NCBI GenBank assembly: GCA_963827655.1
Contig: CAWHCF010000036.1
Location: forward strand, 232,827-296,826
Length of the DNA: 64,000 nt
From: an uncultured Acidobacteriota bacterium
GTDB lineage: Bacteria; Acidobacteriota; UBA6911
Direction: 5' to 3'
Position 1 is the stretch's first letter. Each line of letters begins with the position of its first letter. Positions 38,074 to 61,088 of the stretch are shown one piece after another. The notes beneath the pieces were generated by a model that saw only the letters and a program-made list of their open reading frames with translations, did not search any database and was not told the origin of the DNA. The position numbers and the translations under genes were made by a program.

Positions 38074-38105
38074 GCGCCTAGTGCCGTTCCAACTTGTTGT
38101 CTCTA

Positions 38106-38340
38106 AGGGTTCGTGAAGAAATAAGTTCGCATTCTGCTGCAGGCCCCCAGGCCCGCTGGCGAGGCGCGAGCGACGATGCGTACCCGGTGCGGTACGTGAG
38201 GAGCGAGCAACAAAGCCAGCGGGCCTGCGGGCCGCAGCCCGAAGGGGCGCGATCCTCAGCGTGCTTGGCGAACAGAAACCGGTTCATGATTGACCACCGA
38301 CTCTCGCGCCAGAATGTGAAGTTATTTCTGCGCGAGCCCT
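38106..38340. mobile_element. MITE-like element, 235 bp
   Basis: Termini AGGGTTCGTGAAGAAATAA and TTATTTCTGCGCGAGCCCT match at 16/19 as an inverted repeat; internal arms CAGGCCCGCTGGC...GCCAGCGGGCCTG; no transposase. Confidence 0.7.
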
Positions 38341-38430
38341 ATAGCATCGAAATCGAAGAGGCGAGTCGGCGTTTCAGGTAGCGGCCTCCGTTGCCAGTCT
38401 TCAGAAAGAACGTACGGCTCCGCGTCCAAG

Positions 38431-40197
38431 TCATCGGGCCTTCAGGATGAGGGCGGTCAGGTCGTCGCTGGAGCCCACCGCGCCCGCCCATTGGTTGACC
38501 GCCGCTATCAGGCCCTCCAGGATGGTGGACGCGCTCCCCCCGGAAAGTGTGCATAGAGCCTCGCAGACCCGCTCGTCGCCGAACTCGCGTTCGTCGGGAG
38601 AGTTGGCCTCGGTCACCCCGTCCGTTACCATGGCTACCACGTCCCCCGGCTCGAGCCTCACCTCGCCCGCCTCGTAGGACACATCATCAAGGATGCCCAG
38701 GGCGAGCCCGCCCGTCAGAAGCCGGCTCACCGTCCCGTCCCGGGCGACGCGGTAGGGCGGGACGTGGCCGGCGTTGACGTAGGCGAGCCGGCCCGATGCC
38801 GCGTCGAGTTCCCCATAGAAGAGCGTCACGTATTTATTGGCCTGGGTCTTCGCGAAGAGGAAACCGTTGAGGCGCTCGATCACCTTCGCGGGCGCTGCCG
38901 TCCCCGCCAGCGCCTGCATGGATGCGTGGACCGAGGCCATCAGAAGGCTGGCCGGCGTCCCCTTCCCCGAGACGTCCGCTATGAGGAGGGCGAGTCGGCC
39001 GCTTCCCAGGTTGATCCAATCGTAGCAATCGCCGCCCACCTCGTAGCATGAGCGGCTCTCGGCCGCCATGTCGAAGCCCGGGATCGCGGGGAAGTGCGGC
39101 GGGAAGAGACTGCGCTGGATCTCGCGGGCGAGCTGCAGCTCGCGGTCCTGCCGCTGCTTCTCGACGCGCAGCCGGTGCAGGCGCGCGCCTTCCAGCGCGG
39201 CGAATGCGTGACGGGCCAGCGTCTGAGCGAAGTCCCGGTCCTCCGACGAGAACGGCGTGCGAGAAGCGCGCTCCCCGATGGCCAGGACCCCCTCGACGCG
39301 CTCCCCAGCCGTCAAAGGCACTGCGAGGGCCAGCCGGGCTTCCTTCAGCCGCCGGCGCAGCGGTCCGTCCGGCAACTCAGCCACCTCCTTCGGCCCGAGG
39401 AGGTCACGGAGCGCGGCCCGCGCCTCTTCGGGAGGGATTGGCGCGCTGTTGACCTCGCGCCGCAGCCCGCGTTCGTACACGAGGGTCAGTCCTCGCGGCC
39501 CGAGGAGGTAGAGGCCGCAGCGCGAGACCACGAAGTGGCCCATGACGGTGGTCGTGATGAGGCCCTGGATCGCCTCCTCCTCGAAGCTACCTGTCAGCTC
39601 ACGGCTGACGTCGAACAGGTTGTGGAGCTGGTACACCTTGACTGAGAGCTTCTGCTTCACGCGCCTCAGCTCGTCGTAGATGAGGTTGTTCTCGACCGGA
39701 GCGGCGGCACAGGCGGCCACGCTGCGCAGGAAGGCGTGCTCCTCCGCGCCGTACGCGTCTCCTCCCGCTCGGGGGCCCAGGCCGAGCACGGCGATCGCGC
39801 GCTCGCGGCGACGGATCGTGCACAGCAGCACGAGACCGTGGCGGGCATGGGCCTGGTCGCCGGGCCCCAGGGCCGTGAGGTCATCGGGTGGCGCCTCAAA
39901 GCCCAGTGTGGAGGGCGCCCCCGGCGGGAGGCCGCACGAGGCCCGGATCGCGAAGGTGTCGTCGTCGCGCCTCACGAAGAGGGCCCCCCGCGAGGCCTGC
40001 ATCTCTGACATGACGATCAGAAGGGCCGCGTTCAGGCTCTCCTCACTGGCGAGGCCTGAGCTGAGCGTGGTCGTGAAGTCGAGGAGCGAGATCAGCTCCG
40101 ACATCCGCTTGAGGAGCGGTGGCTTCCTCCCCCCCTCCCGCCGGAAGTGGTCGAGGGCCTGCTGGTACTCGCGAACCACGGGGGTGGAGGCCGACAT
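38431..40197 (-). CDS. GAF-GAF-SpoIIE (PP2C, RsbU-like) phosphatase
   Basis: ELQLAREIQ, VGGDCYD, IADVSGKG, NAGH, TDGVTEA, SDDLT. Confidence 0.92.
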   Translation of the reverse strand: MSASTPVVREYQQALDHFRREGGRKPPLLKRMSELISLLDFTTTLSSGLASEESLNAALLIVMSEMQASRGALFVRRDDDTFAIRASCGLPPGAPSTLGFEAPPDDLTALGPGDQAHARHGLVLLCTIRRRERAIAVLGLGPRAGGDAYGAEEHAFLRSVAACAAAPVENNLIYDELRRVKQKLSVKVYQLHNLFDVSRELTGSFEEEAIQGLITTTVMGHFVVSRCGLYLLGPRGLTLVYERGLRREVNSAPIPPEEARAALRDLLGPKEVAELPDGPLRRRLKEARLALAVPLTAGERVEGVLAIGERASRTPFSSEDRDFAQTLARHAFAALEGARLHRLRVEKQRQDRELQLAREIQRSLFPPHFPAIPGFDMAAESRSCYEVGGDCYDWINLGSGRLALLIADVSGKGTPASLLMASVHASMQALAGTAAPAKVIERLNGFLFAKTQANKYVTLFYGELDAASGRLAYVNAGHVPPYRVARDGTVSRLLTGGLALGILDDVSYEAGEVRLEPGDVVAMVTDGVTEANSPDEREFGDERVCEALCTLSGGSASTILEGLIAAVNQWAGAVGSSDDLTALILKAR

Positions 40198-45316: not shown

Positions 45317-46369
45317 TCAAAGGGCACTCACATCGAGGTGTTCAGCCGTCATCGCGGTGACTTCTACCATCCGCACAGGACCCTTCCCCTTGAGTTCAAC
45401 CGCTCCCCGTAAGGAAACATCGGCGCAGGGAAGCCGGGCGGACATTTCTTCCGTTACAGCGACCGTACCGGGAGAGGCCACGCCTGCCAGACGGGCGGCG
45501 ACATTCACGGTGTCACCCCAAATGTCGAACTGGTAGCGCTCGCGGCCCACGATCCCGGCCATGACCGGGCCCATGTGAACGCCGGACCTGACCCGCCAAC
45601 TGTGCCTGCTCTGGCCAGCCACTTTGGAGATCGCCAAGGCGCAAGTCACTGCGGCGTGCAAAGGGTCGGCCACTGGGTGGAGCAACCCGGCTGTTGCAAG
45701 AAATGCGTCGCCAATCGACTTTATCTTTTCCAGCCCATGGGAGCTCACGCATTCCTCGAAGGCAACGAAGAGGTCGCCTAAATCGCGGACGACCTCTTCC
45801 GGAGAGTGTTGATCGCAGTAAGTCGTGAAAGCCACCAGATCCGCGAACAGCACCGCGACGTTCTCAAAGCGGCGCGGTATCACGCTACCGGTCTTCTTGA
45901 TCTCCACGACGGCGGCGGCCGGAAGAATATTTTCAAGGAGTCGATCAACCTTGCGTTTTTCCTGGGCCAATTGCTCGCGAGCTTCGCGCAGCGTCAGGTG
46001 CGTTTGAACACGCGCCTGAACCACGGCAGGCGAGAAGGGCTTGTGGATATAGTCGACGGCGCCGAGTTTGAACCCCTTGGTCTCGTCCTCGGTCTCGGTT
46101 TTCCCGGTAAGGAAAATAACGGGAATGTCGCACGTAGTCGGGTCCAGTTTCAAGCGGCTGCACACCTCATAACCATCAAGATCAGGCATCATGACGTCGA
46201 GCAGGATCAGGTCAGGCTGCGGGAGCTCTTTCGCAAGCTCCAAGGCCTTAGCACCGTTGGTTGCAATCCGGGTTGTGTAGGAGTCCTTGAGGATGTTACG
46301 GATCACCTGGATGCTTGCTGGCGTATCGTCAACCAGCAGGATCAGCTTCTTGTCCATGCTGTCTTCCAT
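45317..46369 (-). CDS. Response regulator with class III adenylate cyclase output
   Basis: REC domain (LVDD, LLDVMMP, KPF); VLFADLVAFT, EKIKSIGDA, FDIWGDTVNVAARL (K/D adenine-specifying residues). Confidence 0.92.
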   Translation of the reverse strand: MEDSMDKKLILLVDDTPASIQVIRNILKDSYTTRIATNGAKALELAKELPQPDLILLDVMMPDLDGYEVCSRLKLDPTTCDIPVIFLTGKTETEDETKGFKLGAVDYIHKPFSPAVVQARVQTHLTLREAREQLAQEKRKVDRLLENILPAAAVVEIKKTGSVIPRRFENVAVLFADLVAFTTYCDQHSPEEVVRDLGDLFVAFEECVSSHGLEKIKSIGDAFLATAGLLHPVADPLHAAVTCALAISKVAGQSRHSWRVRSGVHMGPVMAGIVGRERYQFDIWGDTVNVAARLAGVASPGTVAVTEEMSARLPCADVSLRGAVELKGKGPVRMVEVTAMTAEHLDVSAL

Positions 46370-46442
46370 TCTTGCACCTCAAACGGGGTAGAGAACGCAC
46401 CTGCGGAAGTTCCGTGATGGCTTCAGGGTGCTCCACGTAAAC

Positions 46443-49400
46443 TCAGATTTTTTTGGTGAGAGCATTCCTCTCTCCGGCGGCTATCAGTTCCTCGTATGCC
46501 TCGGAGAAAGCATAGTTCTCGATCAGGCTCGCAAAATGTTCGAATTCTTGCTTGTTGAAGAAGATCCGCAAATGCGGCGCTGCAGACTCGAAATAGTCAA
46601 TCGCGGCTCCATCGGACTTCGCCAGGTAGCGCGACAACTGCTCGACAGCTGACTTAACCTGCCCAGGATCGCCTGCTGGAGCGGGTTCGCGGTCCGCTCG
46701 ATCAATTCCTTTCAATCCTTGGATGAGATCGGCAAGACACTCCTCAAGCGATGCGCGCCACAGTTCGATGTCAGATGCTGCAACCGAATCGGTAATAGCC
46801 TTCTCGAGATTGGCGGCCGCATGCTGGACAGCTTTGGCGCCAATGTTTCCGGCGACACTCTTTAAACTGTGAGCCAGCCGACCAGCCAGGGAACGATCGT
46901 TCCCGGCAAGGGCGGCCGCAATGCGCTGGGCAGCGTCAGCTTCCGTGTTGCAGAACTGGCGCAGGAGTTTTCTATACAGCTTTCTGTTGTCGGCCACCCG
47001 CAAGAGACCTTCCGCCGTGTTAAGGCCGGGCACATCCGGCAACTCGTCAGCCTCCGCGACCACAGCGGAACCCTGTTCATGTGCCGGCACGGCGACCGTC
47101 TTCACGATCGGCGTGACGAAGCGCTCCAAGGTTTCGAAGAGCGAAGAGGGATTAATCGGTTTGGACACATGAGCATTCATGCCAGCTTCTAAGCACTTCT
47201 GCCTTTCCTCAATGGTGGCGTGCGCTGTCATGGCTATGATTGGAAACTTCTCGAATCGTGGATCAGACCGGATTTTCTTCGTGGCCTGGTAACCATCCAT
47301 TCCCGGCATTTGAATGTCCATCAGCACCACATCAAAATTTGTGGGCGCCGGCTGGTCCAGCATCTTGCGGACCGCTTCAAGACCGTCGTTAGCGATCTCA
47401 ACGGTCGCGCCGACCCCCTGCAGCAACTCCACGGCGATCTGCTGGTTGATCTCGTGGTCTTCGGCAAGAAGGATTCTTACGCCACTCAGCCGGTCTGCAT
47501 GGCGATCGATCGCCGAAGCCGGCGTCGTTGTGTCTTGGCGGGCTCCAGAGAACAGAGTGACCAGCGTATCGACCAGCATTGACTGCGTAACCGGCTTAAG
47601 CAAGAACCCATCCATCTCCACCCGCTCCGCCTCTTCGCGCACCTCGTCGCGCCCAAAAGCGGTGACGAGCACGACAGCGGGGTGCTTCTTCAGTTCAGGC
47701 TCCTTTTTGATGAGACGTGCCGTCTCAATACCATCGAGGCCAGGCATTCGCCAGTCCATGAAAACGACGTCGTACGGCTCGTCCGAGTCGTGTTGTTTCA
47801 CTGCGGCTATGGCTTCCTCGCCCGAGCTCACCGCATCCACGCGGGCGCAGAGGCCATCGAGCGAATGCACCAGAATGTCGCGCGCCGCAGCATTATCATC
47901 CACAACCAGTGCCGAAACGGCGCGAAGCCGCTCGGGAACGATCCTGCTCCGCGCCAGGCCCGAGGCCACTCCCAAAGAGACTGTAAATCGAAACGTGCTT
48001 CCGGAGCCTGGTTCGCTCTCGAGCCAGATCTCGCCACCCATCAATTCTACTAAACGCCGGCAAATGGTCAGCCCGAGTCCGGTCCCTCCATGTTTGCGTG
48101 TTGTGGACGCATCGGCCTGGCTGAAAGGCTGAAACAAGCGGGCCGTCTGCTCTGGCGTCATGCCGATGCCCGTGTCCCTCACAGAGAATCGGAGCCTCGC
48201 CCTGGAGCCTATCTGTTCCAGCAGTTCCACTTTCAAGTAGACTTCGCCGTGATCGGTAAACTTGATCGCATTGTTGATCAGGTTCGAAATCACCTGGCCC
48301 AAGCGCAACGGATCGCCCACCAGATTCTGGGGAACAGAATCTGCGACGTCAGCCAGGAACTCGAGCCCCTTTTGCTGAGCCTTCTGAGCTGTGATGGAAG
48401 TCACGGAGGCAATCACGTCATCCAGGCGGAAGTCCACCGTCTCGATGTCAAGCCGCCCCGCTTCGATCTTCGAAACGTCGAGGATGTCATTGATCACCCC
48501 GAGCAGCGAGGTCCCCGCATTGTGAATCTTGTTGAGGTAGTCTCGCTGCTTGTCTGTCAACGGCGTCTTCAAGGCCAGGTACGCCATCCCAATGACCGCA
48601 TTCATCGGCGTCCGTATCTCGTGGCTCATGTTGGCCAGGAAGATCGACTTCATAGCCGTAGCCTCTTCTGCTCTCTCTTTCGCGATCTTGAGTTCCTGCT
48701 CAGTGGCGCGGAGTTCTGCCGTGCGCTGCTGCACCAGTTCATCGAGCCGCTTTTCACGCAGTTTCAGCCCCCTGACTCGCAATCTGTGGGCGCCGAGAAC
48801 CAGTCCCACAAATGCCAGACCCATCAGGCTCCTGAACCACCATGTCGCCCACCAGGGCGGTAGCACCGTGAGCTTGAGGGTGATACCCTTGTCATTCCAC
48901 ACCCCGTCTTTCGTCGATGCCAGAACGCGGAAGACATACCGTCCAGCCGGAAGGCTCGTATAGGTGGCTTGCCGGCGCGTGCTGTCAACCTCGTTCCATT
49001 CTGATTCCAGACCTTCCAACCGGTATCGATATCGGTTCTTTTCCGGGGCGGCATAGCTCAGACCAGCGAACTGCAAAGTAAAAATGCTCTGCGCGTGGTT
49101 GAGTATCAGGGAATCGGTCATCCAGATTGGCTTGTCGAGCGGCGAACCTTGACCCGGCTTGATCCGTTGATTGAACAAATGAAGGTCGGTCAAAACAACT
49201 GGCGGGACGTAGGAATTAGTGAAAAGGCGATCTGGGTAGAAGCTTGTCACGCCGTTGGTTGAGCTAAGGACCATTTCACCACTCGGACTCTGCCAGCTGC
49301 CCTCTGACAAATAAGGGTTCAGGACATTGGAAGGTAACCCCTCGGATTCTGAGTAGGTGCGATGATCTCTTGTCTCAGGATGAAATCTGATCAGGCCGTT

Positions 49401-51347
49401 TTCCGTGGCTAGCCAGAGATAACCCTCTCGATCTTCGAGAATCCCCCTGATTCCCGTATTTGGGAGACCGTCCTTGCGCGTGAAAACCGTGAAGGTTCCC
49501 GTCCTGGGATCAAGTGTTTGAAGGCCTGTAAAGGTGCCGATCCATAGCCTTCCCTGGCGATCCTCGCGCATGGCGCATACGCGATTGTGGGCCGGGGTCT
49601 GGAACTGCCGTGACTGATCGCGATAGACGGTGAATTGACCCGTGTTGCGGTCAAACCGATTCACCCCGTCGCGAGTCCCCACCCACAACGTTCCGGCTCG
49701 ATCCTCGAGGATGACAGAGACGGTGTCGTGAGATAGACTGTGACTGTCTTTCGGATTGTTGCGATAAACTCTGAATGTTCCTGTCGCCGGGTCAAATCGG
49801 TTCAGCCCTCCGTCCTGTGTGCCCACCCAAAGCACCCCTTGGCGGTCCACAAGAAGAGAAAGCACAAAATTGGTGCTTAAGCTGCCAGGCTGCTTCGTAT
49901 TGTGCTGGTATCTGAAGAATCGTCCAGTGGCGCGATCAAAGCGGTTGAGCCCTCCGCCGTAGGTTCCAAACCAAAGTGCGCCGGAGGCGTCTTCGCGAAT
50001 CGCCGTTACCTTGTCATAAGAAAGGCTGTGTCTGTCCTTGGGGTCATGCCGGTAGAGAGTGAATTGGCCACTGTTTCGATCCACCCGGTTGAGACCACCC
50101 TCCGTGCCCAACCAAAGGAATCCCTGGCTGTCGCCTTGGACGGCCCAAACCATATTGCGATACAAGCTGTTCGGATTACCTGCGCTGTGCTGATAGTTGA
50201 CAAACGGAAGAGGCCTTCTGGGGAAACGGCTCAGGCCACTCCGTGTTCCTACCCACATCATTCCTTCCCTGTCTTCAAACAGCGAGTAGACCCAATCGTT
50301 CGGCAGGCTTTTTGGGTCGGCAGGGTCCGTGCTGTACCGAGTGAACTGGGTGCGTTCAGGATTGAGTTTCAGAAGTCCGCGATCAATTGTGCATAGCCAG
50401 AGTATTCCCTCCTTGTCTTCATACAGGTTATCCACCCCGGCGAAGGCTTCGTTGCCTGATTCTCCTGGATGAAAGGAATAGCGGACGAATCGACCAGTCT
50501 TAACGTTCAGGGCACTGACGCCTCCCACCTTTGTGCCTACCCAGAGTACCCCTGAGTGGTCTTCGCGGACCGAAAGCACATCATCGTGGCCGAGGCTGTG
50601 GGGATCCATCGGATCGTGCAGGAAACGCGAAAACCGCCCCGTGGTTCGATCCAACTTGTTCAGGCCCCTTTGTGTACCTATCCACAGATTGCCCAGCCGG
50701 TCTTCAACAATGGAACTGATAAGACTATTGCTCAGGCTGCCGGCATCCTGGGGATCGTGCTTGTAGTGCAAGAAAGTTCCGCTCGCCGGGTCCAGGCGAT
50801 CCAGCCCCGCTTCGGTTCCAACCCACAGTATGCCGCCGCGGTCCTCGTAGATTTGCCAGACTCTGTCAGCGCTCAAACTCCGAGGGTTGGCGGGATCAGA
50901 CCGGTAGTGGGTAAAGATCTCCTGAGCTGGGTCGAGGCGGTTAAGCCCTCCAAAGGACGTGCCGATCCAGAGGATGCCAGCGCGATCTATGCAAACAGAT
51001 TGGACCCAGTCGTCGCTCAAGCTATTGGGATCGTCCGGATCGCGTCGGTAGGTCTTCAGGTTATATCCATCATACCGGTACAATCCAACATTGGTCCCAA
51101 ACCACAGGAATCCGTATTTGTCTTGCGCGATCCCACCTGTTATTCCACTTTGAAACGATTCCTTATCTACGGAGAGGTGGCTGAACCGGATATCCTGCCT
51201 ATCCACGACTGGAAGCTTCATGAAGCCGTTGCGAAGCGAAGCTGCGAGGCGGTCCTGCGTGCCCGCTCCGGACGCAGAGAGACAGAAAGGCAGCAGGACC
51301 CCGAGGGCAGAGAGGAGCATTGGTCGTAGTCTGGCCGAATGTGTCAT
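46443..51347 (-). CDS. Hybrid sensor histidine kinase: two-component propeller, Y_Y_Y, HisKA, HATPase, 2 REC, Hpt
   Basis: ED..G.LWIGT repeats, [30 protein letters not shown], two REC domains, [13 protein letters not shown]. Confidence 0.95.
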
Positions 51348-52033
51348 GGAGTCTGCCTACTGAACAGCGCGAATCCATTCCAGGGCGAATATCCGCGAGT
51401 GTGAGAGTTGCGCATGTGGAACGCAAAACGGCTATATCCAGGTCCTCGCAGTTCAGAAATCATACGCCTTCTCACAAACAGGAGGCTTCGCCAAGCGCTT
51501 CAAGGAATTCGGAAAGCAACCTTCCAGGAAAACTGCCCGAAGACCCGCAGTCTGATGCGCGACTTACAGAGAACCGAGCCGTGGGGGCCAAGTCACCATG
51601 CACTATGACCGCACACTGCACCAATAAAAGGCAAAGGTCGGGACTAAATGATCGATCGGGGAGAAAGCTGACAGTCCTCTGCGCAGCGAGCTTTGGTTCA
51701 AGGTTTCGCGTCGGTCATCGAATCCGCAGGTCAATCATTCCTTGCTGACTGACTGTGAGCGATCCCTCGTGCCACCAAGCGAAATATAAGCGCCTGTTCT
51801 TGAGAATGGGTTCACGCCCGAGAGCTTCCGACTTGTGATGTCATCTCGACTGCGCGCGTCTTCCCCGGCAATTTCCCGCCACGCCGGATAGTCTATCACG
51901 GATTTTGCGGACTCGCTTCCCGAGGAGGCGTCCATCCAGGCACAATATCTTGCCACGATCGGCAATGATTGACGCCACGTCAGGATCACAAGAATGGCCC
52001 GCGGATCTGGGGACCTCGAGCGAGGCTGAGTCG

Positions 52034-53875
52034 CTATCTTGTCGATTGCAGGGAGCCGAGACGAATCCGGGTTCCTACCGAGAGGTCATGCGCCCGAAAG
52101 GCTTCGATGGAACTGTAGCTGTACCAATGCCACTCCCCGACGATGTCTAGCCGTTTTGTGGCAGGCGCGATCAGCCTGGCTCGAGGAACATAATACCTTG
52201 TGGGTCGGGTGCCTTCGCTCCAGGAAAACGCGCCGCCGGCGTGGAGTACGACTCCGCCCATGAGGCGCACGTCGGCATAGGCACTGCCATGGTGGCCACG
52301 GTCGCTGTATATGGAAATGTCGCGCCGAAAGAACGTCGGGTCGATGAACACGGAGGTCGAATCTATGGTTTCTCTCGAGTAGGTGCCCACGAGTATCGTT
52401 CGCCGTGATTGATTGGGTGTCCATTCCACCGTTACGGCGGCTTGCCGGCTTTGGAAGTCGATACCGACGTTCTCGTTGGACAGTGTCTTCCAAAGGCCGG
52501 TAACCTGCAAGGCATCCGTAATGCGCAACCGTCCTTGAAGGGCTAGCTTGCGGTAATCCTGCAAGCCGGTGCGAAAATAGGTCTCATCGCCGGGGGAGCC
52601 TTCGAAGTCGCCATTCAGCCGCGCGCGGCCCTTCCAAAAACTAAATGTCGCGCCCGCCAAAGCGACGTTTCGACGGATACGCGGGTTGTTTAAAACGGTT
52701 TCGGGGAAGATCAAATCCGCCGGCGGCAGATCCGTATCGCTGCGCACGTAACGATGGCCTGCCCGGACTGTTAACGCACGGCCGATATCGCCGGAGATCT
52801 CCGTTTCGCTCTGGTCATAATGGAGATTCAGATGCGTTCGTGGAGAGGAAACCGGCTCCAGCATCGCCGCGGTACGCGAAGCTCCGGAGATCTCAAAGTC
52901 ATCGGAGAACCAGTTGTAGCGCAGGCGCCAGCGGGGGTGCGGCCGGAACTCGGCGCTGAATGTCCCTGACGTATGGGGCTGGCTGGCGTCGGCAAAGCTT
53001 TGCTCGACCTGGGTCGTGTAGGGTCTGAGGGTTGCCGGGTCCTGGAAGATTCCTTCGGCGTTCAGTTCATGCGTAACTTCCAGCTCGGGACGGCTGTAGA
53101 CGAAATGCCCGCTGAGTGCCAGCTGCTGAAAAGGCTGCGCTTGAAAAAAGCCTCGGGTGAACGGCCCCGAACCGGACCCCTGATACTTCTCCAGCAAGTG
53201 TCCAAGAACGATCGTATCCTGCCGGTTTCCTCCATTGACACTGGAATCCAGCGTTTGGTCGTCGGTGTATCCGGTCCAACCCTGCTCGATGGTGGCGGTC
53301 CAGGCCTCGCCATTAAACTGCACACCGCCGCGCGCGGTTGTCAGCTTGTCGCCGAACGTTGTGAAGACGGGAAACTCATCCCCGCCCCCGACAAATGGCG
53401 TAATCCCCTGCCCGTCTCCTGAAGTGCGCAGGAGTCCAAAGAATGGCGTGACCCGCGATCGGGGCTTGAACCGGAACTCCATATCGAGTTGATTTCGCCG
53501 CAGGTCGATGGCGCGCTGACTGGTTACCGCTCCCTGCGCCAGCAGAGGATTGGCATAGGAAGGCAGATTGTTGAAGTAGGCTAGATCTCGATACTGCAAC
53601 TGAAACTCGTACACCTTCTCTCGGCGCAGGTCGAACCTCAGTTCGCTATTCGGATCGCCGCCCCAGTTATGCGCGCTGAAATCAATGCGATCTTTGCCTT
53701 CATAGCGTACCAGGGCATCGAACAGACGCGGCCCCTCCCCCAGGTTCACGATGCTTCGATAGACCTGTCCTTTGTCGCCGGTCACAAAGCGGTTCCTGAT
53801 ATCGAACTCGGCGCTGAAGGGCTCTTGTGCGTGAAGCCATCCCGCGGTGAACAGAATCACGACGAGAGTCTTCAT
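52034..53875 (-). CDS. MtrB/PioB-like outer-membrane beta-barrel porin
   Basis: Signal peptide, YRSIVNLGEGPRL, amphipathic beta-strand pattern, ATGA overlap with the decaheme gene; assignment relies partly on gene context. Confidence 0.75.
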   Translation of the reverse strand: MKTLVVILFTAGWLHAQEPFSAEFDIRNRFVTGDKGQVYRSIVNLGEGPRLFDALVRYEGKDRIDFSAHNWGGDPNSELRFDLRREKVYEFQLQYRDLAYFNNLPSYANPLLAQGAVTSQRAIDLRRNQLDMEFRFKPRSRVTPFFGLLRTSGDGQGITPFVGGGDEFPVFTTFGDKLTTARGGVQFNGEAWTATIEQGWTGYTDDQTLDSSVNGGNRQDTIVLGHLLEKYQGSGSGPFTRGFFQAQPFQQLALSGHFVYSRPELEVTHELNAEGIFQDPATLRPYTTQVEQSFADASQPHTSGTFSAEFRPHPRWRLRYNWFSDDFEISGASRTAAMLEPVSSPRTHLNLHYDQSETEISGDIGRALTVRAGHRYVRSDTDLPPADLIFPETVLNNPRIRRNVALAGATFSFWKGRARLNGDFEGSPGDETYFRTGLQDYRKLALQGRLRITDALQVTGLWKTLSNENVGIDFQSRQAAVTVEWTPNQSRRTILVGTYSRETIDSTSVFIDPTFFRRDISIYSDRGHHGSAYADVRLMGGVVLHAGGAFSWSEGTRPTRYYVPRARLIAPATKRLDIVGEWHWYSYSSIEAFRAHDLSVGTRIRLGSLQSTR

Positions 53876-54693
53876 CGCAGGAAATCCCGGTTCACAAACG
53901 AGCCATGAGTCTTCGCATGGCAGACGGTGCAGCTTTGATAGCGCGCACTTCGCAGGTCATGAAAGGCCGGCGGCGAGCCACCCGCAAACGACATGGTAGT
54001 CGTGTGGCACTCCAGGCACAATTGGCTCACATTGCTGCGAGTGAGCATGCGGGGATTGGCGGACCCATGCGGTTCATGACAACTTGCGCACGGCTGTACG
54101 CGGACCGGAGCATGCTCGAACGGGAACGGGCCGCGCTTGTCGCCGTGGCACTTGAAACACGCCGTGTCCTGGCCGCCGATGGCGCGCACTCGCGTTGCCG
54201 GCAGGCTGCCGTGCGGATCGTGACAGTCGCCGCAGTGGACTGCGCCTGAGGTCAGCTTATGCGCGAAGGGCCGTTCGAAGCTGGCTCGCACTGCCGGGTG
54301 GCAGCTCGAGCAGAGCGTGTCGCTCGATCGGCGGATATCGGGAGTGTGAACGCGATGGCAGGCATTACAGCCCACGCCGTTCCGCGAATGCGGCGACTCG
54401 AACCGCTGCATCTGTCTACGATCCTGCCCGTGACACTTCTGGCAGGACCGGTTGACCGTATCGGCCTGGCTGCCGGCGTAAATCTTAAGCCGCTCGGGAT
54501 CAAGCGCTTCAACATGCGCCAGTCCGGGTCCGTGACAGGATTCGCAGGACGAGTCGTGGTGCCGATTCTTATGAAACTCATCCGCCTGCGTCTTGTGGCA
54601 AACGGCGCACCGAGGCGATCCGACAAAGCCCCCCTGCGCGTACAGAGCAGAGCTCTGCAACACGAGCCACAGGACTGCCCATTCAGTTCGCAC
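53872..54693 (-). CDS. MtrA/DmsE-family periplasmic decaheme cytochrome c
   Basis: 10 CxxCH; FVGSPRCAVCH, CESCHGPG, CFKCHGDKRGPFPFEHAPV, CHEPHGS, CTVCHAKTHGS. GTG start inferred. Confidence 0.92.
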   Translation of the reverse strand: MRTEWAVLWLVLQSSALYAQGGFVGSPRCAVCHKTQADEFHKNRHHDSSCESCHGPGLAHVEALDPERLKIYAGSQADTVNRSCQKCHGQDRRQMQRFESPHSRNGVGCNACHRVHTPDIRRSSDTLCSSCHPAVRASFERPFAHKLTSGAVHCGDCHDPHGSLPATRVRAIGGQDTACFKCHGDKRGPFPFEHAPVRVQPCASCHEPHGSANPRMLTRSNVSQLCLECHTTTMSFAGGSPPAFHDLRSARYQSCTVCHAKTHGSFVNRDFLR

Positions 54694-57226
54694 TCTGAAG
54701 TTCCAGACCCTGGTGGCATTTGCGGCAATTGTGGAGCGTCGCAAACGCGGTTTTCCCCGGAGCATGACATGCGGCGCACAACTCGCCTCTTGCCTCCGCC
54801 GTTCGGTGATGGTCCGCCGAGTAGCCGGGGAGACCTCGGCGTCCCATCGGGAACAGTCTGTTGTGGCAGTCGCTACAGTCGCCTTTAGCCTTCCCGAGGT
54901 GCAGATTGTGATTGAACGTCACCGGACCGAGCCGATTGGCATAAGTCAAGGGCGCGTCGAGCGCGGCTATCGACCCGCGCGCAGTCAGCTCGGTATGGCA
55001 TTTCAGGCAATTGTCTTTGGCGGCAAAAGCCGTTCCATTGTCCCGATGACAGGCGCCACAGGAGGTTTTGTTCTGTTCGGCCGTTCGATGCAGATTATCG
55101 GCATATCCGAGCATGCCTTTGGCGAGAGGAAAGATTTGGTTGTGACAGCTTCGGCAATTTCCTTTGCTGATATCCACATGGCGGGCATGATCAAATTTGG
55201 CCGGCCCGAGTCGCGTCTCGATCGATCTCGAATCGGGCAACCCGGAGACGCCGGTTTTCGGCGTCGGACGTGGAGTCCCTAGACCCGTATGGCACCGCTG
55301 GCAATTGTCTGCAGAAGCAAATGCGCTGCCGGATGGAGCGTGACATCCGGCACAAGAGGTCCGCGCCGATTCGGCCGGCCGATGCAGGCCGGCGCGATAG
55401 TTGAGGTCGGCCTTCGCCATCGGAAATAGCTTGTTGTGGCAGGCGACGCAATCGCCTTTCGCGAGCGTCACGTGCTGCGCATGGTCGAACGCCGCCGTGC
55501 CCAGCGATGTGTCGTACCGTAACCCGCCCGGCAGACCCGGAGTGTCAGACGTGGAGACGCTGGCAGCCGTACGAAGAGGCGTGCTCAGGTTTGTGTGGCA
55601 GCGCGCGCACTCTCCCTCGGAGGCAAAGGCGGTTCCTCCCGGAGCGTGACAGCCCGCGCATGATGTGCGCGCTGCTTCGGCGGCTCGGTGAAGTTTGGCC
55701 TTGTAGCGTAGATCTCCGCGTTCCATGGGGAAATACTTGTCATGGCAAGCAGTGCACTCGCCATTGGCCCGCGTGAGATGCTTGGCATGGTCGAAAGCCA
55801 CTTCCCCGGCGGCGGACTGGTAGGGAATATTCGCGGGCATTCCGCTATCGGCTGACGCTGATCGTATCGCGACAGGCTCTGACACGGGTTCATTACGCTT
55901 CTCGATGCGGTGGCAGACGGTGCAGCTTTGTGAGACGGGCCTTCGCTGATCGTCCTGACTGACCAGCTCCGAATTGTGGCATCGGTAACATCCGTCGTGA
56001 CCGAGGAAATTCGGATGCGTGCCCCAGTCCACTCCCCATTCCGGGAATACATTGCGGCTGCGAATGGCCACCAGCTCCGTGGCGGCCTTCGAGATTGCGG
56101 CCCCTTGTTCGGCGGCAGCCTGCGGATAGCGGCTCTGGTAGAAGGCGCGCAGAGATTCCGGAATCGCATCCTTCTTTTTGAGTTCGGATAATCCCGCCGC
56201 CTTGATCTCGGGCAGCGTGTGGTCAATCTTCCCCTCGGCCAGGGCCTGGTCCAGGGCCCTGGCGGGGTCTTCAAAGCTATGCGCCGCCCGATTGTGACAA
56301 TCGGTGCAATCCATGGTGCGCAGCTCGCCGTTGGATGGCTGGGCGCCGGCACGAGCGAAGATTGTCTCTCGACCCTGGGGGTTTCGATAGCGAATCCAGT
56401 CAATCTTTTTGCGGTCCGGCGTCGACCGGTACTCTATTTGAGCCCCGTTTGAGAGATGAGCGCCGTGGGCGCCCAGCGGGTTGGCGCCTCCACCGATCAA
56501 AATAGCCAGTTGCGTACGGGTGGCGGAGTTTGCCGCATCCGAACCAAACTCAATGGCCTCCCATCGCTTGTTCCCGAAATCCCGCTCCGCATGACACTTT
56601 GAGCAGGTCAGCTTGCCCTGGGCGAGATTGTGGACCGGAGTAGGAACGGGAATGTGTTCGGTTCCCGTCATCACCTGCAACAGCTGTTTAGCGCCGTTGA
56701 GCTTGGCTGCCACGTACGATCTGGCGCCGGCACCGATGTGGCAGTCGACACACGGCACCTGGGAGTGAGGCGCGATCTTATAGGCCGTGAACTCGGGCGT
56801 CATGATATGGCAAGTGGACCCGCAGAACTCCACGGAATCCATGTGTTCAATGGCGGTGTACGTCAGGTGTCCTCCGATTACGACGTTCAGCACGGTGGTT
56901 ATGGCGAAGAAGAGGACCAGGTTGCGGAACTGAACATTGTTCCATCGAAGCTCGGGAAACTCTGCGGGCGTGCCGATCTTCCGTTTCTGCAGCCGAATGC
57001 CGAGAGGAATCAGTGCCAGTCCCAGGAAGAAGAGCGCGGGCAGCAGGAATACTGTCAACAGTCCGAGATACGGGTGGCTCGACCCGGTCAGATTCGCGGG
57101 TAATGTGAAGAGCCACGATACCGCGGCTGCAGTGACCAGAAAGATACCGATCCGGCTGATCCAGTTGCTGGATAGATAGACCAGAGGTCGCAACCGCTCA
57201 GCGAGCGTGGACTTTGTCGACGGCAA
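54683..57226 (-). CDS. ImcH/NapC-NirT-like membrane quinol dehydrogenase fused to four c7 triheme domains (18 hemes)
   Basis: 3 TM helices, FCGSTCH plus 5 CxxCH, WGTHPNFLGH; then 4 repeats of FxHxxH-CxxCH-H-CxxCH-CxxCH. Start codon uncertain. Confidence 0.9.
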   Translation of the reverse strand: MPSTKSTLAERLRPLVYLSSNWISRIGIFLVTAAAVSWLFTLPANLTGSSHPYLGLLTVFLLPALFFLGLALIPLGIRLQKRKIGTPAEFPELRWNNVQFRNLVLFFAITTVLNVVIGGHLTYTAIEHMDSVEFCGSTCHIMTPEFTAYKIAPHSQVPCVDCHIGAGARSYVAAKLNGAKQLLQVMTGTEHIPVPTPVHNLAQGKLTCSKCHAERDFGNKRWEAIEFGSDAANSATRTQLAILIGGGANPLGAHGAHLSNGAQIEYRSTPDRKKIDWIRYRNPQGRETIFARAGAQPSNGELRTMDCTDCHNRAAHSFEDPARALDQALAEGKIDHTLPEIKAAGLSELKKKDAIPESLRAFYQSRYPQAAAEQGAAISKAATELVAIRSRNVFPEWGVDWGTHPNFLGHDGCYRCHNSELVSQDDQRRPVSQSCTVCHRIEKRNEPVSEPVAIRSASADSGMPANIPYQSAAGEVAFDHAKHLTRANGECTACHDKYFPMERGDLRYKAKLHRAAEAARTSCAGCHAPGGTAFASEGECARCHTNLSTPLRTAASVSTSDTPGLPGGLRYDTSLGTAAFDHAQHVTLAKGDCVACHNKLFPMAKADLNYRAGLHRPAESARTSCAGCHAPSGSAFASADNCQRCHTGLGTPRPTPKTGVSGLPDSRSIETRLGPAKFDHARHVDISKGNCRSCHNQIFPLAKGMLGYADNLHRTAEQNKTSCGACHRDNGTAFAAKDNCLKCHTELTARGSIAALDAPLTYANRLGPVTFNHNLHLGKAKGDCSDCHNRLFPMGRRGLPGYSADHHRTAEARGELCAACHAPGKTAFATLHNCRKCHQGLELQSAN

Positions 57227-59201
57227 ATTGCGATCCCGTTCCGTGGCATGTCGCACAGCTCTCACCGAATCTCGATGAGATGTTGAGGTCGGCATGCGCA
57301 GCGGTCGAAGTAGTGGTGTGGCAACTCAGACACGCGCCCGTCGCCGGCGGTGACGGGTTGAAGAATCCTTTGGGATCAATCGCCGATGCAAGATTCTCTA
57401 GCAGCGGCAGCTGTTCCGACCCGTTGTCATGACAGGCGCCGCAGTCGTTTCTCGGCCGCGGATAGCGAAGCCCATTGTAATTGGTCCCCCCAATGGTGTA
57501 TTCGCGCGTATTGTCCACACCGAGATGGATCCGATGAATCATTTCCTTGAAGTTGATCGACTCCGGCGGGTTGGCCTCGTCGGTCCCGGTAGGATTGTGA
57601 CAGAGCACGCACTGCAGCGGGTCGTTGCGGTTCGAGCCGTGGAAATTGAGAGAGTAATGGCAGACGCTGCATTTAGCGTTGTTACGACCTGCCGCCGCGG
57701 TTTCACGGTCGTGTCGGTCACCCGGAAAGACAGCACTACGTTGTGGCCCGCATCTCGCACTTCCCTTTGCTGCAGCGTTCCCGGCAGCAAGATTTCGTTT
57801 TTGTAACCTTCAATTCCCACAGTCCAGCTCAGTTTCGCAGCTTGCGGAAGCGCAGCCTGTGAATTGATAGGTGTACCGTCCGTCCGCACCCGCCGAGGCC
57901 ATCCGAGCGTCTTCGCTGATGTAGGGCCCGTTGTCGGCATTCGAATCCACCGGTCCGGCGAGTACCAGAGCCAGCCTGTCCAGTGACGAGGGAGCCAGCG
58001 GCTTGTCTGATTTGTCGCTCACACCGAATGTGACGGCCGGGCTTTGACCCGGCGCCGTATTCTGAATACCGAAGAGCTGGAATTTGACGCCGGGTAGAGA
58101 CTTGGAGAACCTTTCAACGGTATGGGCGCCCTTGATCGAAATGTCGAATTCCAACTCACCTTCGGGGATATGGCACTGACGGCATTGGTTGTCCGATACC
58201 TGCGGCAGCGCGGCATGATTTTCTCCGGTGGCGAAATTGACATTGTCATGACAGCTTCCGCAGGCGCGGCGGCTCGGGTTGGTCAAGTGCTGATTGCCGG
58301 TGGCGCCTTCCAGGTGGCAGACGGTGCAGTTACGGACATCGGCCGGGAAGACGACCGTAGAATAATCGTGGACGGATTGATTATTGCCGATGATCACGTA
58401 GGGTTTGCCGGCCATGACGCTGGGTAAGCCTGATCCCTGATGGATCTTGTGCACCATGGTCGTAAAATCCACGGTGTTACCGGTGTCGGGATCCGTTGTC
58501 TGCGGAGTGTGACACATAATACAAACCTCAACCGTAGTCCGGCTGCCGTGAAAAACCAGCGGGGTTCCGTGGCAGGAGTCGCATTTCTGATTGGACGTAA
58601 TCTGCCGGGTTTCTGTCACGGCTGAGCCGGCCGGTACCCAGTTGAAGGTCTTCGCCGCCAACGAGTTACTAAGCTCGAATTCAGACAAATCGCGGCTCGC
58701 ATAGGCGCCAACCGTGTGGGTAGCGGTCCGATCGTAGCCGGTGGGCAGTTTTGTGTTGAACCGGTATTCGTACACTCCGTCGCTGATCTTGGTGAAGGTG
58801 CCTCCGGAATCGGTAGCGGCTTGAATTGCACTCACGCCATTTGTGGGGCTGGTCTGAGTTCTGGTGATGTAGGAAGTGTATATGCCCTGGCCGCGCGGAA
58901 TGTAGCCCAGCAGGGAGCTGATGCTCACCGGACCGGGCGTGACAATACCCTCGCGATCAAGCGGTAGTCCCTGGGGATCTGTAATCTTGAACTGATACCG
59001 GACGGTACCGTCCGCATCCACGGTTACGGACAGAATATTCAGCACGAGTCCTGGCCGGATGAAACTCAGTTGCTGCTCATCAAGAAACGCAGCTTTGCTT
59101 TTCTGAGTTGAGTCTTTTTGAATGCTGACTGCAGCCCAGCCGGAAATGGCCAGACAGCCGACAAGCAGGGTCGTGACTCTGAACCGCGTTTTGTTTGTCA
59201 T
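57198..59201 (-). CDS. OmcA/MtrC-family decaheme cytochrome, interrupted by compensating +1/-1 frameshifts (about 57850 and 57680)
   Basis: Two beta domains each followed by 5 CxxCH (CDSCH, CIMCH, CTVCH, CGSCH, CRQCH; CSVCH, CVLCH, CGACH, CLSCH, CATCH); FHGSR, MVHKIH and MIHRIH motifs. Confidence 0.9.
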
Positions 59202-59307
59202 GAAGACCTTATGGTTGCGCGAACGCTAGGTTCTAACACAAGGATGCGCATAGGTGGCTTTTAGCCGACCGCTGAGCATGCACTTGCCAAACTACGGTTC
59301 CGGATTC

Positions 59308-59367
59308 GCGTTATTATAAGCTCTGGGGGTTGCGTGATTATAAGCCCTGGGGGCCGCCAACAGTCAA
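59308..59367 (-). promoter_or_regulatory. Tandem 22-bp repeat with two TATAAT boxes upstream of the cytochrome operon
   Basis: GCGTTATTATAAGCTCTGGGGG (59308-59329) and GCGTGATTATAAGCCCTGGGGG (59332-59353); TTGACT lies 19 bp upstream of the distal TATAAT on the minus strand. Confidence 0.5.
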
Positions 59368-59663
59368 GCAAACTCTTCTGTAGGGACGCCAGCTCGGATA
59401 GACCGCGTGGAGAGCGACCAGTTTGAGTAGACGCCGCCAAACTTCCCGGCAAAACTGTGATTCGGCCGTATGGCTGTCCAGGCTACGCACTGCCGGGCCT
59501 TCGACCTCTCCAATCTGTTCACGTCTTCTGACGAGCCGGCTTTGAGCTTTCTCCAATCGTTTCACGTCTCTGAGCTATTGTTTCTTTCTGCTGAACCACA
59601 GGCCGAAGGCCGGCAGAAGCTAGGCCCACGCCGAGCGATGGACTACTGGCGGCAGTGGGGTCA

Positions 59664-61088
59664 TCACATCGTCCATGTTTTGACCTGGGCGGGCCCGGGC
59701 TCTGACGTGTAGTAGGCAATTCGTTTGATATTCAGCAGATGGGTGTATGTCACGCTATCGGTCGTGGAGTTGCCGCCCCATGTCCCACAGCCCAGCGTCA
59801 ACGACGGCAGCAACCCAGTCGTCAGCCCGGTCAGACCCTGCGTGCCCGGCGAATTCACCAGGATGCGGCTGGCTGGCATCGACGCCGCGAAGCGCTCACT
59901 GAGCTTGGTGTTGCGAGTGTGGATGATCGCCGTGTGACCCATCCCGTCAATCGCAAGCAGCGCGCGGCAAACGCGGAGTCCTTCGTCCGCGTCGTTGACT
60001 GTGAAAAGGCTGAGCACCGGCGCCAGCTTCTCGGCCGCCAGCGCATTCTCCGCAACCACGTCCTCGCTCGGGATCACCAGCAATCGGATCGGGTAGGGAC
60101 GCCGGATCTGCGCCAGCGAGGCCACAGTCGTGGCATCCTGGCCGATAACCGACCGTATAAGGCGATGCGTTTGTGGATCGACCGCCGCATCTCGAAAGCG
60201 CTCGGCCTCCTCTGCACTCAACACCGCGGCGCCCTGAACCTCCAGTTCCTTGAACAAGGCTGGGCGGACACTCGCCTCGACCACCAGGTGATTTTCAGCC
60301 CCACAGATCAGCCCGTTGTCGAACGGTTTACTGTACACGACGCTGCGTGCGGCGTGGTCCAGATCGGCGTCGGCGCTGATCAGCACCGGAGCGTTGCCGG
60401 GCCCGACGCCAATCGCCGGCGTGCCCGAACTGTAGGCAGCCTTGACCATCGCCTGGCCGCCGGTCGCCAGCACAAGTCCGACCCCTGGGTGACTCATCAA
60501 AGCCGCAGTGGTGCCGCGACTGCTGCCGCCGCCCAGCCACTGCACCAAATCCGCGGGCGCGCCATGCGCACTCAGCACCTCCTGGATCAGTGCGCCCACC
60601 CGCTGCGAAACCTGCACCGCACGGTGGCTGGGGCTGAGAATCAGCGCGTTGCGACCTTTGAGAGCGATCAACGTCTTGAAGATAAAGGTCGCCACCGGAT
60701 GGGTGGCGGGGATGAGCCCGACGACGATGCCAACCGGGCTCGCGATCTCAGCGAGCTGGCGCCGACTGTCAAAACTGATTTCGCCATGCCCGATTCGACC
60801 GGCCAACTGCTGGTAAATCCCGAGGCTGGCAATGCGGTTTTTGAGCGTCTTATCCCGGACATTGCCCATGCCGGTCTCGGCGACCGTATCTACGGCGAAT
60901 CCTTCGGCGTGGTCGCTGACGACCTGGGCCAGCGCCTGCAGGAGAACGTCGATTCGCGTCTCGGTCCAACTCTCGATCAGCGGCCATGCCGCCTGCGCTC
61001 GCTCGATCAGTTCTCCGACAACCGGGTCGGCCTGTGGTGGCTGATCGGTAAGGCGGCGGATTTGGTGTTGTGCTTGGGCGCCGATCAT
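59664..61088 (-). CDS. CoA-acylating aldehyde dehydrogenase (AdhE-N/EutE-like)
   Basis: ETGMGN, IPATHP, LATGG, GVGPGN, FDNGLICGAE, EKLAPVL, GHTA, PSLTLGCGTWGGNS. Confidence 0.93.
   Translation of the reverse strand: MIGAQAQHQIRRLTDQPPQADPVVGELIERAQAAWPLIESWTETRIDVLLQALAQVVSDHAEGFAVDTVAETGMGNVRDKTLKNRIASLGIYQQLAGRIGHGEISFDSRRQLAEIASPVGIVVGLIPATHPVATFIFKTLIALKGRNALILSPSHRAVQVSQRVGALIQEVLSAHGAPADLVQWLGGGSSRGTTAALMSHPGVGLVLATGGQAMVKAAYSSGTPAIGVGPGNAPVLISADADLDHAARSVVYSKPFDNGLICGAENHLVVEASVRPALFKELEVQGAAVLSAEEAERFRDAAVDPQTHRLIRSVIGQDATTVASLAQIRRPYPIRLLVIPSEDVVAENALAAEKLAPVLSLFTVNDADEGLRVCRALLAIDGMGHTAIIHTRNTKLSERFAASMPASRILVNSPGTQGLTGLTTGLLPSLTLGCGTWGGNSTTDSVTYTHLLNIKRIAYYTSEPGPAQVKTWTM

Follow-up and report, generated by a model that had tools for sequence, protein, structure and literature searches.

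A putative ImcH-type quinol dehydrogenase fused to four c7-type triheme domains within an acidobacterial mtr operon

The locus described here lies in a 64,000-nucleotide (nt) stretch of DNA, hereafter the window, from an uncultured Acidobacteriota bacterium of the GTDB lineage UBA6911 (assembly GCA_963827655.1, contig CAWHCF010000036.1, positions 232,827 to 296,826). Four genes follow each other on the minus strand in the order mtrC, imcH-c7x4, mtrA and mtrB, with overlapping stops and starts; the mtrC stop falls within the opening codons of imcH-c7x4. The last-named gene (54683..57295, minus strand; protein P0001) is a single uninterrupted open reading frame (ORF) encoding an inner-membrane multiheme cytochrome of 870 amino acids (aa), with a total of 18 heme motifs, six in an N-terminal module and 12 arranged as four triplets. 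Alternative in-frame starts are found at 57265, 57256 and 57226 (TTG, codon 24). The start is uncertain, giving a protein of 847-870 aa, and the starts of homologues fall at codons 13-27.

The N-terminal module begins with three predicted transmembrane (TM) helices (56858..57163, minus strand), indicated by both hydropathy and structural modelling. Hydrophobic segments are located at aa ~45-69, 73-103 and 121-146, and the AlphaFold2 (AF2) model, built on 69 aligned sequences, places helices at 45-69, 75-107 and 121-152, with a predicted local distance difference test (pLDDT) score mostly of 68-89. The periplasmic heme module (aa 158-462; 55910..56824, minus strand) carries its motifs at aa 158, 182, 231, 330, 436 and 458. 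The first, 12 residues past TM3, is a CX3CH motif (CGSTCH) followed by x-Met, an NrfH-like start, while the other five are CXXCH. Residues C158, C162, H163 and M165 are invariant across the 69 aligned sequences, and none of the 18 heme motifs of the protein varies when 11 full-length relatives are aligned. The CH-x-Met arrangement after the first motif is like that at the quinol-site heme of NrfH.

The Pfam model PF03264 (NapC/NirT) matches aa 127-212 of the protein with 43.6 bits (cut-off 24.1). The NCBIfam NrfH model gives 61.7 bits, under its cut-off of 134.2, and the napC_nirT model 16.7 bits, under its cut-off of 310.6. When sequences of solved structures were searched, the sole match to this module was NrfH (2j7a_C, E 0.0025), which was also the sole meaningful fold match of the AF2 model in Foldseek (probability 0.97-0.99, ~115 aligned columns). 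The tetraheme class of NapC, NirT, NrfH and CymA, with one TM helix, four hemes and 150-200 aa, is not matched by a module with three TM helices and six hemes. The hallmarks described for ImcH, namely three TM helices, a first motif of the CX3CH type and a NapC/NirT region (Levar 2014; Zhong & Shi 2018), are those of this module. ImcH homologues, of ~500 aa, carry five to nine CXXCH motifs according to Zhong & Shi (2018), a range into which the N-terminal module fits with five, whereas the whole protein, with 17 CXXCH and 870 aa, falls outside it. By these published hallmarks, the N-terminal module is classed from its sequence as ImcH-type, its likeness to Geobacter sulfurreducens ImcH (GSU3259) being one of description and not of direct sequence comparison.

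The C-terminal part of the protein consists of four c7-type triheme domains on the minus strand, each matched by PF14522, TIGR04257 and the solved structure 3ov0_A: domain A (aa 488-568; 55592..55834), domain B (aa 589-670; 55286..55531), domain C (aa 688-768; 54992..55234) and domain D (aa 781-862; 54710..54955). The repeats measure 81-82 aa, share 42-60% pairwise identity and hold three CXXCH motifs apiece, at aa 514/546/563, 616/648/665, 714/746/763 and 807/840/857. Both the Pfam cytochrome c7 model PF14522 (150 bits) and the NCBIfam c7-type triheme model TIGR04257 (164.2 bits, cut-off 40) match four stretches of the protein. The array is thus the tail of a protein with three TM helices, not a free soluble protein with a signal peptide of its own. 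Its best relative of solved structure is the dodecaheme GSU1996 (3ov0_A, E 1.1e-29). In GSU1996, one heme per domain is His-Met ligated. A conserved His (LHRxAE; H536, H638, H736 and H830) sits in the present domains where GSU1996 aligns Met or Asp (M..ME), and the Met after the first motif (FPM) is kept in domains A, B and D and replaced by Leu in C. From the ImcH module through domain D, the linkers measure 25, 20, 17 and 12 aa; Pro, Ser and Thr make up 10 of the 20 residues between A and B, 8 of the 17 between B and C, and 2 of the 12 between C and D.

Most of this architecture had been anticipated in a preliminary description of the locus made from the sequence alone. The ImcH/NapC-like module with three TM helices and six hemes is borne out by hydropathy, motif positions and PF03264, with the correction that the first motif is CX3CH. 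The four triheme repeats of ~85 aa at 55840-54713 are recovered as a block spanning 55834-54710 in units of 81-82 aa, and the likeness of the tail to GSU1996 extends to clear homology. The linkers, all taken to be rich in Pro, Ser and Thr, are so between A and B and between B and C, not between C and D. For the gene span, given as 54683-57226, the stop stands, while 57226 is only one in-frame candidate for the start in a frame that reaches 57295.

The fusion recurs in other assemblies. A word-indexed search of 5.8 billion proteins, in which 8000 candidates were scored, produced 124 matches, of which 120 were listed; 37 fused-type clusters (P0002-P0038) were sorted by length and motif count. 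Among the matches listed, 11 clusters from other assemblies have the 18-heme two-gene layout of the window (821-878 aa), 22 have a longer, triple form (1142-1177 aa) and 4 are partial. P0002 is 95% identical to P0001. P0009, with the two-gene form, comes from the isolate Bryobacteraceae strain F-183, and P0022, with the triple form, from a 6.9-Mb record. The assemblies with fused layouts come from JGI, ENA, NCBI and Logan, and the nearest proteins with a name carry the label Bryobacteraceae or Bryobacterales. From P0039 onward, the matches listed are unfused proteins of 478-654 aa in which about half of the query is covered; those checked (P0039-P0060) have CX3CH and five CXXCH each.

In addition, contigs from four studies, each represented by one soil or rhizosphere metagenome run, were aligned on 54600-57950. 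No indel was present inside 54683-57295, the ImcH/c7 junction was bridged by record 11 of run X2 (55776-56005, aa 430-506), and the 3´ junction with mtrA was bridged in all four runs (e.g., record 25 of X4, 54600-55693). The contig cover of the gene is patchy, no single contig spans all of it, and uncovered parts were not counted. An apparent deletion variant at 55911 in runs X1 and X3 was rejected; the 30 letters of its loose end are those of 53888-53917, at the 3´ end of mtrA, and the false break arises because this end shares a short QSCTVCH stretch. RNA runs X15-X20 contain just 6-10% of the words sampled and are not used here as evidence of expression or habitat. Given the single open frame, the clusters from other assemblies and the indel-free contigs, the ImcH-c7 fusion is not an assembly artefact. 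The artefact that the preliminary description had named as a way for its claim to fail is contradicted by the layout shared among 11 two-gene and 22 triple clusters, and, on the read support that it called for, indel-free contigs of other runs bridge both junctions. The fusion is not unique to the window, since it recurs elsewhere.

The 22 longer clusters among the 37 fused-type ones (P0002-P0038) read in frame from domain D into a complete MtrA module. These triple fusions, of ~1160 aa, carry CX3CH and 25-27 CXXCH, up to 28 motifs, and fall among P0011-P0036. The order is seen at DNA level in four metagenome loci (contigs of 37-425 kb), with one ORF of 1164-1176 aa and 27 CXXCH between mtrC and mtrB (L114:5986-9516, L115:5950-9468, L116:5950-9468 and L119:5989-9483). 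The figures for L115 and L116 are identical and may stem from the same organism. No form longer than 1523 aa appeared in the search, which is weak evidence that none exists. As a separate observation, the first heme motif of domain C in P0011 is WRTCH and not CxxCH, which represents either a single-cysteine heme attachment or a sequence error.

In the window, mtrA (53872..54693, minus strand) encodes a decaheme of the DmsE/MtrA family (TIGR03508, 199.6 bits, cut-off 192.2). Its likely start is the GTG at 54693, which gives an overlap of 11 nt with the imcH-c7x4 stop in the +1 frame; the protein then begins with an ordinary signal peptide, MRTEWAVLWLVLQSSALYA, followed by QG. The mtrA ORF stays open up to 54765. 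The next gene encodes an MtrB-like outer-membrane porin of 613 aa (52034..53875, minus strand), assigned by position and synteny, with a 4-nt overlap between its start and the mtrA stop. The genomic surroundings of imcH were surveyed in the flanks of ImcH-like genes at the 80 best-matching genome loci. Homologues of the MtrB-like protein follow mtrA in 8 of these 80 loci (L005, L006, L008, L010, L013, L021, L025 and L065), and PF11854 (MtrB_PioB) matches 2 of 11 aligned homologues, with a best E of 1.9e-7. The order mtrC, imcH-c7x4, mtrA, mtrB is the same in L005. A scan of 51300-59750 for sigma-70 promoters returned 0 sites against a shuffle mean of 3.0, and the 9 terminator-like sites there are not in excess of the 7.6 in shuffles, so that they are uninformative on the ends of the operon.

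The first gene of the cluster, mtrC (57198..59201, minus strand), encodes a lipoprotein-type decaheme cytochrome of the OmcA/MtrC family and is interrupted, as indicated by TIGR03507 and frame analysis. The model matches 57810-59201 with 299.9 bits (cut-off 209.3; profile positions 4-424) and 57198-57608 with 109.6 bits (profile positions 514-672). Two opposite 1-nt frame changes, near 57859/57860 and at 57678-57680, lie ~180 nt apart and shift ~60 codons to another frame, with an in-frame stop at 57810-57812. The two matched pieces share one frame, and the middle part matches the MtrC of L005 only in another frame. Relative to the window, a base is missing at 57859/60 in the contigs of all four metagenome runs, and the three runs that cover 57678/80 show an additional C behind it (3/3), resulting in an open mtrC frame. 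The other Pfam-matched genes of the window mostly cover their family at full length. From the sequence, the break can be either a local assembly error or a real lesion.

Taken together, these data make it probable that imcH-c7x4 encodes an inner-membrane (mena)quinol dehydrogenase of the ImcH type with a tethered 12-heme c7 string that feeds MtrA. Quinol oxidation would take place at the heme nearest the membrane, the NrfH-like one; the electrons would then cross the six hemes of the ImcH module and move on along the string, one domain after another, to MtrA. The latter would sit in the MtrB porin, and MtrC would hand the electrons over to extracellular Fe(III) or Mn(IV) minerals or to humic matter. 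The protein would thus represent a covalent version of the Geobacter step from ImcH to c7 (PpcA/GSU1996), set inside an Mtr operon, and would offer a membrane-anchored periplasmic route in place of, or besides, free shuttles. A link of the string to MtrA is supported by the overlapping gene ends and the 22 in-frame MtrA fusions. The motif count from the quinol site to the MtrA end is 18 + 10 = 28, which fits a crossing of the periplasm, since ~27 hemes were estimated for its ~200 Å by Edwards (2019). The direction of flow, the contact with MtrA and the mode of action, as a continuous wire or as swinging beads, are inferred. A tethered string of beads, as described for PgcA, is tentatively favoured over a rigid wire on the basis of the model, because the linkers look disordered.

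In the relatives, the same route might be contained in one molecule. It is tentatively suggested that the triple form is a 28-heme polypeptide of ~1160 aa, anchored by the ImcH helices and inserted in the MtrB porin by its MtrA end, and that the pair in the window is its split version, which would still dock with MtrA. If true, a natural respiratory chain hard-wired across the two membranes of a Gram-negative cell would have been identified for the first time.

Several observations weigh against this interpretation of the window protein and its relatives, whose support comes throughout from sequence. The ImcH assignment is, as indicated, descriptive with respect to GSU3259. Heme-to-heme continuity finds little help in the AF2 model, where the linkers are predicted to be disordered (pLDDT <50) and the c7 domains are modelled with low confidence (pLDDT 40-70). 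The MtrB-like protein of the window matches PF11854 weakly (E 0.039, 13 bits, cut-off 23). Owing to the interruption of mtrC in this assembly, the electron pathway may be incomplete here. The distribution of the fusion among sampled genomes is patchy, the complete form being present in 0 of 50 other genomes of the GTDB order and in 0 of 136 other genomes sampled from the class. Furthermore, a signal-peptide-like segment, with K/R, a core such as PWALLLLLAVP and a small-residue site, lies between domain D and MtrA in all 20 triple-fusion junctions inspected, out of 22. Were this segment to act as a stop-transfer helix, MtrA would remain in the cytoplasm. No in-frame ATG, GTG or TTG with a charged N-region ahead of the hydrophobic core occurs in 3 of 3 loci at DNA level, and because such a start is lacking there, a separately started MtrA inside the triple fusions is not supported by the sequences. 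The start-codon result and the stop-transfer topology contradict each other, and this is the main unexplained point of the triple fusions.

The genome of the host (8.18 Mb, 53 contigs, 90% complete) also bears on the role of free shuttles. Among its 37 ORFs with at least three CXXCH, imcH-c7x4 is the only ImcH-like and the only c7-type one. Ten small multiheme ORFs were scanned and none of them reaches the c7 or CctA cut-offs; three of the ten resemble QrcA-type pentahemes. Judging from their sequences, the small ORFs with 4-5 hemes may act as free shuttles, a further point against an exclusive role of the tethered string. The replacement of diffusible shuttles put forward in the preliminary description is not borne out, given these other small multiheme ORFs. 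Its hard-wiring to MtrA is upheld in part: gene order, overlapping ends and the 22 MtrA fusions agree with it, while a rigid wire is no more likely than a tethered string of beads, the linkers being predicted to be disordered.

Other explanations have to be weighed on the same evidence. That the fusion is an assembly or gene-calling artefact is improbable in the extreme: the patchy contig cover, with no single contig across the whole gene, is all that was found in its favour, and it is opposed by the single uninterrupted frame, by the layout shared across assemblies of JGI, ENA, NCBI and Logan, in 11 two-gene and 22 triple clusters, and by contigs of four studies that are indel-free in the gene and bridge aa 430-506 and the 3´ junction. 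A decaying operon, in which the fusion gene would be a relic without present function, is also held to be improbable, at a far lower degree of certainty. The two frame changes and premature stop of mtrC would agree with decay, as would the intact mtrC frame kept by four related populations and the mostly full-length state of the other Pfam-matched genes in the window, which leaves assembly-wide indel noise not obvious. However, the frames of imcH-c7x4, mtrA and mtrB are uninterrupted, none of the 18 + 10 heme motifs is damaged and P0001 shares 95% identity with P0002; moreover, a pair of opposite 1-nt changes 180 nt apart could stem from local assembly errors.

The remaining alternatives concern function. 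The four c7 domains could serve mainly as an electron store (capacitor) or a general periplasmic hub and not as a dedicated bridge to MtrA, which is considered unlikely, if slightly less so than decay of the operon. The flexible linkers of the AF2 model would suit such a store, and no interface with MtrA was obtained; the docking prediction of domain D (aa 775-870) on mature MtrA gave a score of 0.00, which is uninformative about binding. GSU1996, a periplasmic protein with four c7 domains, has itself been suggested to store electrons (PMC13591261). However, the position of the gene between mtrC and mtrA, with coupled ends, points to a dedicated partner, and the joining to MtrA in 22 clusters is hard to explain for a general store. 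The flow could also be reversed, with external electrons from Fe(II), reduced humics or cathode-like surfaces passing through MtrCAB and the string to ImcH and reducing quinone, as proposed for iron oxidisers with Mto/CymA systems. The sequence itself is compatible with either direction. This alternative is judged to be about as unlikely as the relic, as c7-type bis-His hemes are usually of low potential and an MtrC-type outer cytochrome, typical of reducers, is encoded. Mtr-type conduits and partners of the NapC/NirT or CbcL type have been implicated in both directions (Zhong & Shi 2018; Baker 2022), while ImcH is so far implicated only in quinol oxidation (Zhong & Shi 2018). A quinol dehydrogenase feeding MtrA through its tethered string is thus retained as the preferred explanation.

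The component modules all belong to known families. ImcH (GSU3259) of G. sulfurreducens shares the three TM helices, the CX3CH directly after TM3, the NapC/NirT-like region and further CXXCH motifs, and passes electrons to the c7 triheme PpcA in vitro; the transfer from reduced ImcH to oxidised PpcA was shown by nuclear magnetic resonance (PMC13591261). However, that protein is described as having 495-519 aa and seven motifs, as monocistronic and as devoid of c7 domains, whereas the window protein has a six-motif module and 12 more hemes and is encoded inside an mtr operon. GSU1996 (PDB 3OV0), from the same species, also has four tandem c7-type triheme domains and is described as an extended protein of 12 nm. 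It is free in the periplasm with short junctions, unlike the membrane-anchored array of the window with its linkers of 12-25 aa, whose conserved His (LHRxAE) makes the domains more like PpcA than like GSU1996.

In Shewanella, a NapC/NirT-related dehydrogenase (CymA), a periplasmic relay (CctA/FccA) and a conduit (MtrCAB) are likewise combined, as outlined by Baker (2022). There, the relay consists of free soluble proteins and cymA is unlinked, whereas the relay in the window is covalent to the dehydrogenase and, in relatives, also to MtrA. PCC3 of iron-oxidising Gallionellaceae is also conceived as one long multiheme protein bridging both membranes, but it has 21-27 hemes and is a separate periplasmic protein, unfused to a dehydrogenase or to MtrA and without c7 repeats. 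The PgcA 'heme-tethered redox string' of G. sulfurreducens resembles the window protein in its cytochrome domains on low-complexity linkers with inter-domain electron exchange, and differs in being extracellular, with three monoheme domains and no membrane enzyme.

The closest described clusters are those of the lineage itself. Baker (2022) reports a Group 5 of MtrCAB in Acidobacteriia/Bryobacterales without an inner-membrane quinone oxidoreductase near mtrCAB and with a tetraheme gene directly after mtrB in all acidobacterial members. Bryobacterales are also the source of 'EET2', an Mtr-like cluster that is expressed and whose cytochromes have 8-13 hemes (bioRxiv 10.64898/2026.05.27.727921); the main text of this preprint holds no ImcH, NapC or fusion wording. 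The window cluster is probably of the same kind and lineage as Group 5 and EET2, but its oxidoreductase lies between mtrC and mtrA and there is no tetraheme gene after mtrB. In the window, no ORF with heme motifs follows mtrB in 51347-52034; at L013, a four-heme ORF of 402 aa comes right after mtrB.

No description of an ImcH-c7 or ImcH-c7-MtrA fusion was found in full-text searches of the literature, although supplementary files of the preprint and of the Baker (2022) and Zhong & Shi (2018) surveys may list such proteins or their heme counts. This agrees with the preliminary description, which knew of no described fusion, and two surveys state the opposite of the gene order seen here, since Zhong & Shi (2018) also report no mtrAB or mtoAB beside imcH. 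Labels given by database annotators to such proteins already include 'c(7)-type cytochrome triheme protein' and 'DmsE family decaheme'.

How electrons cross the ~20 nm of the periplasm is debated, with free shuttles, transient complexes or a static bridge as candidates. The dehydrogenase, the relay and the conduit would here be tied together, in two proteins in one clade and in one protein in relatives, which offers a direct experimental handle in the rate as a function of domain number or linker length. A gap would also be filled, as acidobacterial Mtr clusters had been reported without a quinol oxidoreductase. Acidobacteriota are among the most abundant bacteria of soil and peat, and respiration of minerals or humic matter bears on carbon turnover. 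Finally, imcH-c7x4-mtrA, as a self-contained module, would make an attractive building block when electroactive cells are engineered.

The history of the fusion was approached with a maximum-likelihood tree of the ImcH module, comprising 58 rows: 11 two-gene, 22 triple and 25 unfused forms. The unfused rows were every fourth id from P0040 to P0120 and four ORFs from the loci; P0010, P0012, P0030, P0037 and P0038, which are short or partial, were left out. All 33 c7-bearing forms constitute one clade with 100/100 support, and among the unfused forms the ImcH of L008 branches closest to it (94/72). That locus also holds a free 208-aa protein with a single c7 domain (L008:5036-5662, minus strand; TIGR04257 43.8 bits, cut-off 40) beside mtrC-mtrA-mtrB. 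The two-gene forms make up two separate groups nested among the triple fusions, neither state is a single clade in any of 200 bootstrap trees and, when the tree is rooted on the unfused forms, a triple fusion (P0035) branches off first. Parsimony on this tree would favour, if loosely, a triple-fused ancestor and two later splits, one of which gave rise to the form in the window. Because it is nested among the triple fusions, the two-gene form of the window is probably a secondary split of the 28-heme fusion. Switches between the two states may be easy, since they differ by a small frame change at the junction.

In the 80 loci with an ImcH-like gene, an MtrA-like gene lies near the ImcH-like gene in 26, and MtrC, MtrA and MtrB-like genes occur together in 8; at L006, an unfused imcH is directly upstream of mtrCAB. 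Nine loci with tblastn matches past aa 560 (L013, L019, L024, L026, L028, L030, L032, L038 and L077) were rejected as fusions, because imcH ends at 465-500 aa and a separate gene with 9-19 hemes begins 10-100 nt later. A CbcL-like b-type domain was detected in 2 of 4 tested downstream genes of these rejected loci (L019 and L024). In other Acidobacteriota, an imcH-like gene stands directly beside a CbcL-like one (L008:6027-8018, L019:9471-11627 and L024:9405-11033), the CbcL-like neighbours having 9-13 c-type heme motifs and an FdnI-type b-cytochrome domain. By sequence assignment, the two Geobacter-type quinol dehydrogenases, ImcH and CbcL, are therefore neighbours at these three loci.

A filter-free HMMER search of 1.84 billion representatives retrieved 456 proteins at E<=1e-30. 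At 50% clustering, the fused clade collapses to two representatives, P0016 and P0136. Five CXXCH motifs are present in 78 of the 147 other representatives listed, six in 31 and at least seven in 27 (P0136 included). The nearest protein-atlas clusters include one whose commonest phylum is Thermodesulfobacteriota. Three distant ImcH-like proteins, P0194 (876 aa), P0202 (939 aa) and P0268 (940 aa), have 19-20 CXXCH, and their C-terminal extensions match DmsE/MtrA-like or paired-CXXCH models, not c7; from these matches, they may represent an independent fusion of ImcH to a decaheme. Judged by such domain matches, C-terminal extension of ImcH is recurrent and the four-c7 array is confined to the fused clade. 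A free four-domain array of this c7 subtype was not found among 15 matches of 215-685 aa, which are mostly fragments from short contigs and so weak evidence.

The genes flanking the cluster, for aldehyde and alcohol dehydrogenases, a hybrid histidine kinase and a response-regulator cyclase, have no obvious link to it. Directly downstream of mtrB on the same strand (45317-51347, minus strand) are the hybrid histidine kinase, of 1634 aa, with Reg_prop beta-propellers, Y_Y_Y, HisKA, two receivers and Hpt, and the receiver-adenylate/guanylate cyclase; the two are possible regulators of the cluster. Elsewhere in the window, the G+C content rises to 0.68-0.71 at 36001-40000, against ~0.6 in the rest, a rise that overlaps an ORF for an SMC_N/AAA ATPase (35626-38073) and one for a GAF-SpoIIE phosphatase (38431-40197).

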